This document shows, one piece after another, positions 13,266 to 15,463 of a stretch of 31,583 nucleotides of DNA. The stretch is from Candidatus Hermodarchaeota archaeon. GTDB lineage: Archaea; Asgardarchaeota; Lokiarchaeia; Sigyniarchaeales; SOKP01. The number at the start of each line of letters is the position of its first letter. The first letter of the stretch is position 1. A program made the translations under genes and the position numbers. A model generated the notes under the pieces. It worked only from the letters and a program-made list of their open reading frames with translations, searched no databases and had not been told where the DNA came from. The DNA lies in contig JBHLLO010000012.1 in the NCBI GenBank assembly GCA_048885535.1, positions 1 through 31,583 of the forward strand, written 5' to 3'.

Positions 13266-13916
13266 ATGGAAAGGCGTTTAGATCGATACAGAAGGACTTC
13301 ACGCAAACCACCATATCAAAGAAAAGGCCCAAAACAAAAGAAGCAGTTTATAAAAAAATTCCGAGAAGTAGTAATTCTGGATATACTACTACATGGACAT
13401 CCAGAAGAAGATAAACCAAGTTGGTCTAAAATCCCACTTGCACAAGTACTTACATTTCCTGATTTTGTCCTTTATGAGGTTAAAGTCAATCGAGATTCTG
13501 ATATTAAAGTTCAAGAGAAGAATACGTATGAGGAGTTTATAAAACAAAATAAATTAAGAGATGTAATAAAGAAAATAGATTTTGATGATCTAACCAATAC
13601 TTCAAAAGCCTTAATTCAACCCATTCTTGAAAAAGAAATTCTAAATTATGAGGAAGAATTTATTACTTTTTTCAATAATTCTACATCAATTACCCCAAGA
13701 ATGCATGCTCTAAAATTACTCCCTGGTATTGGACAAAAACATATGTGGGAAATCCTAAATGAAAGAGCTCGCCAAAAATTTGGTACTTTCCAAGATATCG
13801 CAGATCGTACAAGTATTTCAAATCCTGCTAAACTAATCGCTCAAAGAATTATTAAAGAACTCCAGCGTGAAGGAGTAAAATATTACTTATTTTCGAAGAC
13901 TCAGAAATATGAATGA
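13266..13916 (+). CDS. DUF655 family putative RNA-binding protein (helix-hairpin-helix)
   Basis: VILD.L.HG, FFN....IT.RMH.L.LLPGIG.K.MW.IL.ER, KYYLF; GGTGA at 13259-13263 favours ATG 13266; basic N-terminal extension. Confidence 0.9.
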   Translation: MERRLDRYRRTSRKPPYQRKGPKQKKQFIKKFREVVILDILLHGHPEEDKPSWSKIPLAQVLTFPDFVLYEVKVNRDSDIKVQEKNTYEEFIKQNKLRDVIKKIDFDDLTNTSKALIQPILEKEILNYEEEFITFFNNSTSITPRMHALKLLPGIGQKHMWEILNERARQKFGTFQDIADRTSISNPAKLIAQRIIKELQREGVKYYLFSKTQKYE

Positions 13917-14779
13917 ATAAAATGAATAAAAAACAAGTTCAAGCAACTTTAGCACAACTTAACTTAAAACCAAAGAAATCACTAGGTCAAAATTTCCTAA
14001 TTAATCCTAGTATATTATCTAAGATTGTATCTGAAGCCAACCTTAGTAAGGAAGATATTATTGTTGAAGTGGGTACAGGCTTAGGAGCATTAACAATTGA
14101 ATTAAGTTCAAGGGTTAAAAAAATATATTCTTATGAGATCGATTTTAAACTCTTTCGATATGCATCCAAAAATCTATCATTCTTAAACAATATTAAATTG
14201 ATTCATGAAGATATTTTAAGGGCAGATCTTCCATACCATAACAAAATAGTCTCAAATATTCCTTATACTATAACCGGACCCTTATTTGAAAAAATTTTTT
14301 ACAATGATCGCCCTCCTGAAGGAGTATTAATAATAGAGAAAAGCATTGCTGACAGAATTTTTAACTTAGAAATCTACAAAAAATTTTCAAGAATATCCGT
14401 AACTTTTAACGCCTTCATGAAACCTCTTAAAAAGTTAAACATCTCACCTAAAAGTTTTTATCCACAGCCAAAAGTTGAACTTTCTCTTATTAAAGTTAAA
14501 GCAAGAGAAAAAGTAAATCCCTTTTTATTAGAAAAAGAAAAGCGAAGTTTTTTCTTAGATTTTATAGCAGGAATTATGCCTTATAAAAATAAAAATATTG
14601 TCAATGCTTTAGAATTATATTTAAAGAATAGAACTAGTATTCTTATTCCAAAAATAGAGTTATTAGTTTTTATGAAGGATAATAACATTAAAGATACTAA
14701 GCTTTTTGAATTAAATGTGGATGATTTAGTTGAATTAAGTGCTAAGACTTTTAATTTTTTGAAACAAAAGGTGAACTAG
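13913..14779 (+). CDS. rsmA: 16S rRNA adenine dimethyltransferase KsgA/Dim1
   Basis: KSLGQNFL, EVGTGLG.LT, YEID, VSNIPY, FYPQPKV; ATGA overlap with DUF655; ends in TAG. Confidence 0.95.
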   Translation: MNKMNKKQVQATLAQLNLKPKKSLGQNFLINPSILSKIVSEANLSKEDIIVEVGTGLGALTIELSSRVKKIYSYEIDFKLFRYASKNLSFLNNIKLIHEDILRADLPYHNKIVSNIPYTITGPLFEKIFYNDRPPEGVLIIEKSIADRIFNLEIYKKFSRISVTFNAFMKPLKKLNISPKSFYPQPKVELSLIKVKAREKVNPFLLEKEKRSFFLDFIAGIMPYKNKNIVNALELYLKNRTSILIPKIELLVFMKDNNIKDTKLFELNVDDLVELSAKTFNFLKQKVN

Positions 14780-15463
14780 ATTAAGAAAATACCTGATCCC
14801 AAAATATTAAATAATTCAAATAATGTTTATAGACCTTCTGACGATTCCTTTATGATTATTGATTACCTCAAAGAAAATATAACTCAATCTCATTTTGATG
14901 GTTTAGAATTTAATAGTATAAAGAATGTTTTAGACATGGGGACTGGTACAGGGATAATTGCTATATTTCTCTTATCAATTAAGAAGTATTATCCTAATTT
15001 TAAATCAACTATATATGCTTCCGATATATTGAAGGAAGCTATAGATTGTGCTAAGTTAAACGAAGGACTAAATGACTTTCAAGAAGAAATTATTTTTCTT
15101 CAATCAGATTTGTTCAAATCATTTCCTCAGAGTTTAAAACAAAAGTTTAACATTATCATATTCAATCCTCCATATCTCCCTTCTATTGAAGGTGATAAAA
15201 TACTTTGTGATTTAAATTGGGATGGTGGTATAAAAGGAACTGAGATTTTAGGAAAATTTCTTGATCAAGCCATCGAATTTATTGAACTGAGTAATAATAA
15301 GAGCTACATTTATTTTATAAGCTCTAGTTTGGCTGATATTAAGGAAATAGATGAAATATGTTATAATAAGGGCTTTATCAATAAAATCTTAACGAAAAAG
15401 CATGTTTTTTTTGAAGATCTAATATTAAATAGGCTTGAAATGAAAAAGGGTTCCTCTATTTAG
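14780..15463 (+). CDS. hemK: HemK2/Mtq2-type protein-glutamine (release factor aRF1) methyltransferase; real N-terminus lies upstream of the called ATG 14852
   Basis: LDMGTGTG, SDLF, FNPPYLP, WDGG..G, FFEDL; the family motif VYRPSDDS is encoded in frame at 14825-14848, upstream of ATG 14852; frame is open back to ATT 14780. Confidence 0.85.
   Translation: MKKIPDPKILNNSNNVYRPSDDSFMIIDYLKENITQSHFDGLEFNSIKNVLDMGTGTGIIAIFLLSIKKYYPNFKSTIYASDILKEAIDCAKLNEGLNDFQEEIIFLQSDLFKSFPQSLKQKFNIIIFNPPYLPSIEGDKILCDLNWDGGIKGTEILGKFLDQAIEFIELSNNKSYIYFISSSLADIKEIDEICYNKGFINKILTKKHVFFEDLILNRLEMKKGSSI

Follow-up and report, generated by a model that had tools for sequence, protein, structure and literature searches.

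The gene hemK2 (mtq2) belongs to the family of methyltransferases that act on the glutamine of the GGQ motif in the archaeal release factor aRF1. In the DNA examined here, the first 31,583 nucleotides of one contig (C12:1-31583; the whole stretch is called the window) from a Loki-type Asgard archaeal assembly of 3.09 Mb in 112 contigs (GC content 30.1%, 91.6% complete), hemK2 lies directly behind rsmA and in its frame, with no ATG, GTG or TTG ahead of the motif that opens the protein family. The evidence argues that hemK2 probably starts at an ATT behind a Shine–Dalgarno (SD) sequence, and that this start is one case of a habit found on dozens of genes in the genome. The features of the locus are as follows.

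13913..14779, plus strand: rsmA (ksgA), 16S rRNA adenine dimethyltransferase, 288 amino acids, stop TAG at 14777-14779.
14770..14774, plus strand: GGTGA, the proposed SD of hemK2, within the last rsmA codons.
14780..15463, plus strand: hemK2 (mtq2), aRF1 GGQ glutamine methyltransferase family, 227 codons counted from the ATT, stop at 15461-15463.
14780..14782, plus strand: ATT, the proposed hemK2 start, 5 nt past GGTGA and abutting the rsmA stop.
14804..14806, plus strand: ATA, a rival start and that of the public record (P0001, 219 amino acids, MLNNSNNVY..., 100% identical), with no preceding SD.
14825..14848, plus strand: GTT TAT AGA CCT TCT GAC GAT TCC, encoding VYRPSDDS, the conserved motif at the N-terminus of family members, ahead of the first canonical start.
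14852..14854, plus strand: ATG, the first canonical in-frame start (codon 25), giving 203 amino acids in gene finders that accept only ATG, GTG and TTG.

The rsmA gene ends AAG GTG AAC TAG, and the same frame continues ATT AAG AAA ATA CCT GAT CCC AAA ATA TTA AAT AAT TCA AAT AAT GTT TAT AGA CCT TCT GAC GAT TCC TTT ATG and is uninterrupted up to 15463. ATG, GTG and TTG are all absent from the 24 in-frame codons at 14780-14851, which bears out an earlier reading of the bare sequence (below, the sequence-only reading) that placed hemK2 in frame behind the rsmA TAG with no canonical start before the motif. That reading had also called for sequence support at 14777-14782, where contigs of two samples now agree base for base. 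In the Logan contigs of samples X1 (possibly the source) and X4, which belong to one study and represent assembled contigs rather than raw reads, positions 14500-15100 are covered with 0 differences and 0 gaps; runs X5 and X6 match in short parts only, with 14777 outside their coverage. An assembly slip at the junction is unlikely. Many short X1 and X4 pieces of other contigs (41-65 bases, 4-9 mismatches) pile up at 14548-14625, probably as chance AT-rich matches at the 85% threshold.

Family models place the protein start well ahead of the first canonical codon. The HemK2/MTQ2 model TIGR00537 scores the hemK2 product at 96.1 bits against a cut-off of 87 and aligns residues 16-216, numbered from the ATT, with model positions 1-175 of 179; its first position falls on residue 16, the V of VYRPSDDS. 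The match to PRK14968.1-3 starts at residue 10, and that to human HemK2/N6AMT1 chains at residue 14 (NNVYRPSDDSFMIID against SDVYEPAEDTFLLLD; E 3e-11 over residues 14-199), with VYRPSDDS at residues 16-23 opposite the human VYEPAEDT, both of the form VYxPxxD[ST]. The 227 residues form a single class I methyltransferase domain that contains FNPPYLP and LDMGTGTG and does not carry the N-terminal helical domain of PrmC. NPPY is described as the catalytic signature of the family (PMC3152332, PMC6144793), and the Mtq2 of Haloferax volcanii is reported to methylate the GGQ glutamine of aRF1 with Trm112 as its partner (PMC6144793). By these models hemK2 is a regular HemK2/Mtq2 member, with aRF1 methylation as its predicted activity. 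The motif VYxPxxDS is present in 38 loci of the genus and in 19 of the 21 metagenome loci scanned. The sequence-only reading had taken VYxPxEDS to be conserved and a start at ATG 14852 to be truncating, and both TIGR00537 and human HemK2 indeed align upstream of 14852. The rsmA product is likewise a regular RsmA/KsgA member, matching PF00398 (E 9.9e-43) and passing the equivalog cut-off of TIGR00755 (174.9 bits against 171).

The rsmA-hemK2 junction was read in 57 loci: 38 genomes of the genus, 6 genomes of other families of the order and 13 metagenome contigs. The two genes are same-strand neighbours in all 57; they share a frame in 26 and differ in 31, and rsmA ends in TAA (28), TAG (16) or TGA (13). 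No fusion occurs in the 57 loci, the protein collection not having been searched for longer fused proteins. These counts bear on a proposal of the sequence-only reading, in which ribosomes pass the UAG at 14777 when termination is weak (pyrrolysine or a suppressor tRNA being other conceivable means), so that an RsmA-HemK2 fusion would report termination efficiency in a feedback loop. The proposal draws on the shared frame with a single stop between the genes (TAG here, TGA in the related genome G010) and on the action of HemK2 on a release factor, as for Haloferax volcanii Mtq2 (PMC6144793). In the relatives G018 and G011, however, rsmA and hemK2 lie in different frames, and the variable frame and variable stop across the 57 loci therefore leave no basis for a conserved read-through. 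TAG is an ordinary stop in the genome, ending 264 of the 1852 long open reading frames (ORFs), in line with the remark of the same reading that global amber recoding is unlikely. It had also proposed to look for pyl genes: the best PylS match (TIGR02367) reaches 29 bits against a cut-off of 178 in a genome that is 92% complete, PylB, PylC and PylD not having been searched, and no tRNA-CUA was found among 12 tRNAs, or among 34 with introns allowed, in a tRNA set that is incomplete. No stimulatory RNA fold lies downstream of the stop, the fold at the junction (-11.2 kcal/mol, z 0.35) being no better than those of shuffles. A frame that varies among relatives is also what the sequence-only reading had itself named as refuting read-through. 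Given the variable frame, the variable stops and the lack of fusions, read-through is rejected as scarcely credible.

What the relatives do share is the start region. Two loci of the sister clade read TAG GTG AAT AAC ATT AAA AGA ATC CCC GAT (L006) and GTG AAT AAA ATA AAA AAT ATC CCC GAT (L004), and the GTG AAC TAG ATT AAG AAA ATA CCT GAT of the window lines up with both codon for codon; the TAG is therefore codon 3 of a frame that can be started at GTG in most relatives. Located within GGTGA, this GTG (14771-14773) corresponds to the start that most relatives could use; here the TAG two codons on blocks it. A canonical start lies between the upstream stop and VYxP in 34 of the 38 genus genomes, the four without one being the genome of the window, G010, G018 and G011. 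G010 reads GTG AAA AAA G ATT, with one extra base and rsmA in frame with hemK2. G018 reads TAG GTG AAT C AAC ATC, with one extra base at a different site; its rsmA uses another frame and stops ahead of the GTG. In G011, which sits on a very short branch, A6 replaces the A5 of its sisters; this lesion may be recent or an error. The genome of the window, G010 and G018 form one clade in a tree of RsmA and HemK2 (SH-aLRT 99, terminal branches 0.22 each), as judged from a quick maximum-likelihood tree only.

All four start-less genomes keep GGTGA followed at 5-6 nt by ATT or ATC. The codon at the position of 14780 is ATT in G010, ATC in G018 and ATT or ATA in 21 further genus loci; 24 of the 38 genus loci have GGTGA, 5-6 nt and an in-frame ATT, ATA or ATC (collectively ATH) exactly 15 codons before VYxP, and the metagenome locus L061 has ATG at this position behind the SD (GAGGTGA ATAAC ATG). 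The alignment of the junction that the sequence-only reading had suggested reveals no conservation of in-frame geometry or stop identity and no fusions, the start position being kept as ATH in 24 of the 38 genus loci and as ATG in L061. Two matters escaped that reading: the GTG within GGTGA as the start of most relatives, and the genome-wide use of ATH starts described below. Metagenome contigs yielded no closer relatives, with a best match of 57% identity and no addition to the three-species subclade. In L020 (G003) and L060 (a metagenome contig), the first canonical hemK2 ATG comes only after the conserved (I/V)xDP segment, and L020 has GGAGGA further upstream; the two loci may represent further non-canonical hemK2 starts.

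The codons between the proposed start and ATG 14852 evolve as coding sequence in the three start-less species. Over the 24 codons from the ATY (ATT or ATC) to codon 24, the ratio of nonsynonymous to synonymous substitution rates (dN/dS) is 0.22, 0.22 and 0.44 among the three species at dS of 0.49-0.94, and third positions carry 10, 12 and 8 differences against 3-5 at positions 1 and 2, with no indel and no stop. The rest of hemK2 (199 aligned codons) has dN/dS of 0.12-0.14 at dS above 1. Judged by these substitutions, the 24 codons are under purifying selection, and their open, conserved arrangement is by the same comparison more than chance. With hemK2 alive and its N-terminus coding, translation therefore begins at a non-canonical codon at or after 14780, and some ATT or ATA upstream of the VYxP motif would very probably be the start of hemK2.

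The same codons speak to a start at ATG 14852, which would give a product of 203 residues without the N-terminal motif, the upstream codons being a decaying remnant, or would coexist with the longer form. This ATG is the first canonical start, and the records of relatives of 87-89% identity hold 203 residues and begin MIIDY. Codon 25 is ATG, ATG and TTG in the three start-less species, compared with TTA (24), TTG (3), CTA (3), CTG (3) and CTT (2) in the other 35 loci of the genus, where 3 of 35 (all TTG) are start-capable. A canonical codon 25 in exactly the three start-less species tells against an exclusive ATT start and may leave room for a second, shorter product; the pattern may be a coincidence within one clade or a back-up start. 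Since the three species form one clade, however, the coincidence reduces to one or two events. Purifying selection acts on the upstream codons, which encode the motif that opens TIGR00537 and that aligns with human HemK2, and no SD precedes ATG 14852. The ATG is probably an internal methionine codon, and a product starting there is very unlikely.

The choice among the upstream codons turns on the SD, which was defined by enrichment before 565 unambiguous ATG starts of the genome. GGTGA occurs 20 times before these starts, 17 times at 3-9 nt, and GTGA peaks at 6-7 nt. From GGTGA 14770-14774 it is 5 nt to ATT 14780, 14 nt to ATA 14789 and 29 nt to ATA 14804, so that the spacing to ATT 14780 falls within the genome's own window of 3-9 nt. 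The PDP codons upstream of 14804 (CCT GAT CCY) are kept in the three species with synonymous change only, and most of the genus retains P[DE]P. On SD spacing and PDP conservation, ATT 14780 is therefore preferred and ATA 14804 is its main rival; the start of hemK2 is probably ATT 14780 behind GGTGA. The first proposal of the sequence-only reading, an ATT start at 14780 with GGTGA as its SD, is accordingly the best supported on relatives, SD spacing and selection, while the termination-reinitiation attached to it is not needed.

A start further in, at ATA 14804 or ATA 14789, would yield 219 or 224 residues with the motif retained. In the public record P0001 the protein begins at ATA 14804, and in the NCBI record P0004 (215 amino acids, MSNKSENVY, 75% identical, G018-like by sequence only) at the ATT of the equivalent codon, both of which count against ATT 14780. 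The codon at 14804 is ATA, ATT and ATT in the three species, the conserved Ile of a PDPxI segment. In contrast, no SD lies at 3-10 nt before 14804 (CCT GAT CCC AAA), and GGTGA is too far from either ATA to fall within that range. The PDP codons upstream of 14804 are retained at dS of about 0.5-0.9, as expected if they are translated, and the start in the public record reflects a rule of the annotation pipeline rather than a measurement. Such a start is unlikely.

The simplest mechanism for the favoured ATT 14780 start would be SD-positioned near-cognate initiation at AUU. The 3' end of 16S rRNA would pair with GGUGA at 14770-14774 and place the 30S subunit 5 nt before the AUU, which the ordinary CAU initiator tRNA would read as near-cognate to give a 227-residue enzyme with the VYxPxxDS motif. 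Initiation would really take place at the AUU, with methionine inserted and with expression below the level of an AUG. Ribosomes terminating on rsmA may also feed hemK2, and termination-reinitiation at TAG ATT is possible. Most of the genus retains an in-frame GTG inside GGTGA, two codons ahead of the Ile codon, and the GTG frame is lost in three ways in the subclade, by the TAG at codon 3 here and by one added nucleotide at different places in G010 and G018, with SD, spacer and ATT/ATC kept. In the window, rsmA has been lengthened by three codons (K V N), which carry it across the SD to a stop right at the proposed start codon.

The same lesions could be taken to mean that translation still starts at GTG 14771 and continues by a frameshift or hop, or that hemK2 is a fresh pseudogene or an assembly error. 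Most relatives could start at this GTG, and the extra base of G010 and G011 lengthens an A run (A6 against A5) of the sort where slippage or sequencing errors typically arise. A single mechanism cannot, however, fit a stop here and an additional nucleotide at two different sites elsewhere. A pseudogene is excluded by the low dN/dS over the rest of the gene, where dS exceeds 1; two assemblies, each from its own sample, are identical over the junction, and the lesions occur in three independent species-level genomes. These explanations are together highly improbable.

Starts of the kind favoured for hemK2, SD followed by ATH, recur across the genome. A start-less open extension of at least 20 codons precedes 244 of 2649 long ORFs. 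A strict test counted those extensions in which an in-frame ATH among the first 9 codons follows GGTGA, AGGTG, GAGGT or GGAGG at a distance of 3-10 nt, and four control motif sets of like composition, including ones that contain TGA, were run alongside. The test identified 32 of the 244 extensions, compared with 3-8 for the control sets; 24 remain when motifs overlapping the upstream stop are removed. Pairs of SD and ATH are concentrated close behind the stop, 36 of 49 falling at codons 0-8. In a loose SD-anchored count, the ratio of cases with ATH only to those with neither kind of start is 65:67 behind SDs and 105:289 behind controls (odds ratio 2.67, p 3e-6). The excess suggests roughly 40 ATH starts in the genome. 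Coupling to upstream termination was considered as a requirement for these starts and discarded, as only 8 of the 32 candidates lie within -20 to +30 nt of an upstream ORF end.

The pattern is weaker in a genome of a sister family. In this complete genome (G038, 1.6 Mb examined, GC content 30.7%), the strict test finds 3 of 1413 long ORFs against 1-5 for controls, a rate that differs from 32 of 2649 by Fisher's test (p 5e-4) with SD use being similar (7.0% versus 7.7%). The loose test in G038 gives 18:30 versus 61:185, a weak, non-significant excess (p 0.08). By these counts hemK2 is one case of a habit spread over dozens of genes and not a device of its own; given a genome-wide habit of ATT, ATA and ATC starts, there is therefore no need for a regulatory story specific to hemK2.

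Protein domains support a portion of the candidates: in 8 of the 20 tested, a Pfam domain begins inside the start-less stretch. Among the other 12, 5 are without a Pfam match and 7 have matches that begin at or after the first canonical codon or are silent on the N-terminus. Five of the domain-supported genes are listed here with the position of the first canonical codon; the remaining ones encode V-ATPase E, an alanine-racemase-fold protein and a zinc ribbon.

C15:6907: GPN-loop GTPase, Pfam 7-251, first canonical codon +46, P-loop otherwise lost.
C23:16590, minus strand: folE2, Pfam 6-302, first canonical codon +48.
C42:5255: Vps4, MIT domain 11-75, first canonical codon +32.
C20:26854: phosphodiesterase (Phosphodiest), Pfam 4-284, first canonical codon +112.
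C48:9344, minus strand: ABC ATPase, Pfam 20-167, first canonical codon +25.

The conservation of these candidate starts varies between genes. The candidate start codon of the GPN GTPase is ATT in 52, ATA in 12 and ATG in 6 of 70 close species-level genomes (2 of 72 loci were dropped at contig edges), and several loci have a stop directly in front (TAG ATT, TAA ATT). Ten genomes from other families, of which three are just as AT-rich, have ATG (8) or GTG (2) at this codon. Across 28 genus loci, folE2 shows cGGTGAtttt(t)a followed by ATT (15) or ATC (13), with no in-frame canonical codon upstream in 21; its deep branches carry an in-frame GTG three codons ahead, in the geometry seen in hemK2. 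Vps4 has ATC in a 9-genome clade that includes the genome of the window (one member reads ACT ATC), compared with ATG (6), TTG (14) and GTG (1) in 21 other genus genomes. The number of candidate ATH starts grows toward the subclade of the window, with the GPN GTPase and folE2 across the genus, Vps4 in the 9-genome clade and hemK2 in a 3-genome clade.

The gene for the initiation factor aIF1 (SUI1 family; C22:8724-9074, locus L417:125-475) lies outside the window and has no ATG, GTG or TTG before its zinc knuckle. Its start region reads TGA AAA AAA AGT ATT AAA GAC GAC GAT ATT TGT CCT ATA TGT, and G016 and G022 are alike. NCBI records of 85-90% identical aIF1 proteins begin MKDDEICPIC or MKDDDICAIC, at that ATT, and homologues of 60-69% identity have an ATG or GTG start a few codons earlier. 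From this alignment, aIF1 most likely starts at ATT C22:8733.

The initiator tRNA (tRNAi) is ordinary. In the genome of the window (G000) it keeps its CAU anticodon; the gene is on the minus strand of C22 (about 10194 on the reverse strand) and is split by two introns, the first following the anticodon and the second within the T arm. An intron-bearing counterpart of this gene occurs in five further genomes of the genus, and the archaeal tRNAi of G002, likewise with CAU, is a textbook one (Rfam 59 bits). The introns of tRNAi in the genus sit at unusual places, in the T arm outside G000 (loci L352-L356), and because of these unusual places most tRNAi genes are missed by ARAGORN and the Rfam tRNA model. 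Two explanations for relaxed start selection were tried and set aside. An initiator-like tRNA with another anticodon is not supported, as GGGCTGATAACCC, present in 4 genomes, is not a tRNA and canonical CAU genes were found instead. Loss of aIF1 fails as a cause of relaxed stringency, since G000 carries SUI1, as do 34 of 42 genus genomes.

Several observations weigh against an ATT start for hemK2 and the habit behind it, in addition to the public records and codon 25 discussed above. The aIF1 of Sulfolobus solfataricus is reported to make the 30S complex reject an AUU mRNA (PMC4705826), and aIF1 is present in this genome; such starts would therefore be weak unless stringency is lower here. The anti-SD is inferred because the assembly contains no SSU (small-subunit) rRNA and so no 16S 3' end. 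The GTG is in frame in 20 of the 24 loci with the GGTGA-N5-ATH geometry, so the ATH there may be a mere Ile codon 4, conserved as a residue. The genome-wide rate does not recur in the genus member G008, where the strict test finds 1 of 350 long ORFs (0.4 Mb; controls 0-2); in the sister species G018 it finds 2 of 189 (0.2 Mb; controls 0-1), both being small samples.

Taken jointly, these findings allow a broader and tentative reading, somewhat short of an even chance, in which start stringency is relaxed in the Loki-type (Promethearchaeota) clade and AUU, AUA and AUC behind a strong SD are regular starts on at least 1% of genes. An AUU-started aIF1 would then act as an infC-like homeostat, and hemK2 would come under joint control of initiation stringency and upstream termination. 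The parallel of an AUU-started aIF1, the factor that rejects AUU, with infC is a lead and not a result.

SD-led AUU starts are a kind already known, and the proposed hemK2 start is one of them. NCBI translation table 11 includes ATT, ATC and ATA among possible starts, and pcnB is, beside infC, a further bacterial gene with an AUU start. The infC gene of Escherichia coli, which encodes IF3, is described as AUU-started and controlled by IF3 (PMC4705826). Bacterial starts of the infC type resemble the one proposed for hemK2 in the near-cognate AUU, the normal initiator tRNA and the placement by an SD, and in being missed by finders restricted to ATG, GTG and TTG. In contrast to them, the present case concerns an archaeon with eukaryote-type factors (aIF1, aIF1A, aIF2) and a codon used on dozens of genes rather than on one or two. 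The likeness of hemK2 to infC concerns start geometry and not autoregulation.

Archaeal precedents are closer in some respects. For the Asgard tubulin AtubA, a "rare ATT start codon" has been proposed (Sci Adv 2026, PMC13394414); as in hemK2, an upstream ATT restores the fold and the ribosome-binding site then lies at a plausible distance. As presented there, AtubA is a single gene of another Asgard lineage with a start called rare, whereas the geometry described here recurs across a genome and across species. Among the literature found, PMC13394414 is the only note of a single-gene ATT start in Asgard archaea, and no account of a lineage-wide ATH start habit was found, although supplementary files may hold more. 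Ribosome profiling of Haloferax volcanii with harringtonine reports about 30% of putative alternative starts as near-cognate to AUG (PMC7261190), and archaeal ribosomes can therefore start at such codons. Those sites differ in being extra ones, set aside by the authors as possible false positives, and not the sole start of conserved genes.

Termination-reinitiation coupling, as described in PMC6728339 and PMC10666635, shares with hemK2 an upstream stop that touches the start (TAG ATT) and an SD inside the upstream gene. The coupled pairs described there overlap at canonical starts (ATGA, TGATG), and the ATH starts of this genome do not require coupling. A different comparison is offered by the known autoregulation of prfB through a +1 frameshift. 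Like prfB, hemK2 is a termination-related gene with an early in-frame stop. Unlike prfB, it has no conserved stop, frame or slippery site, and its stop belongs to an upstream gene and a dead leader.

On the favoured reading, the correct hemK2 product would have 227 residues, not 203 or 219, and the 203-residue records of close relatives would be without a motif conserved from archaea to humans. By the same token, gene finders limited to ATG, GTG and TTG would truncate dozens of proteins per genome in this lineage, including the P-loop of the GPN GTPase, the MIT domain of Vps4 and aIF1, in proteomes that are heavily mined for eukaryote-like proteins. If near-cognate starts are indeed routine in this lineage, the closest prokaryotic relatives of eukaryotes would provide a natural experiment in start-codon stringency with aIF1/aIF2-type factors, and the AUU-started aIF1 gene would make the question of feedback directly testable.

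The gene order around the junction is L21e, Rpo4/RpoF, DUF655, rsmA and hemK2, with nurA on the opposite strand. The DUF655 stop overlaps the rsmA ATG as ATGA at 13913-13916, and the row from L21e to hemK2 is tightly packed, so that a single transcript is probable. A scan for promoters and terminators gave nothing above shuffles, and the junction contains no tRNA and no Rfam family. A tRNA-Sec with anticodon TCA is present in the genome (ARAGORN row c[9476,9568]). Within one GTDB genus, the NCBI titles of the genomes name Thor-, Odin-, Heimdall-, Hod- and Hermodarchaeota and, in one case, a bacterial family.

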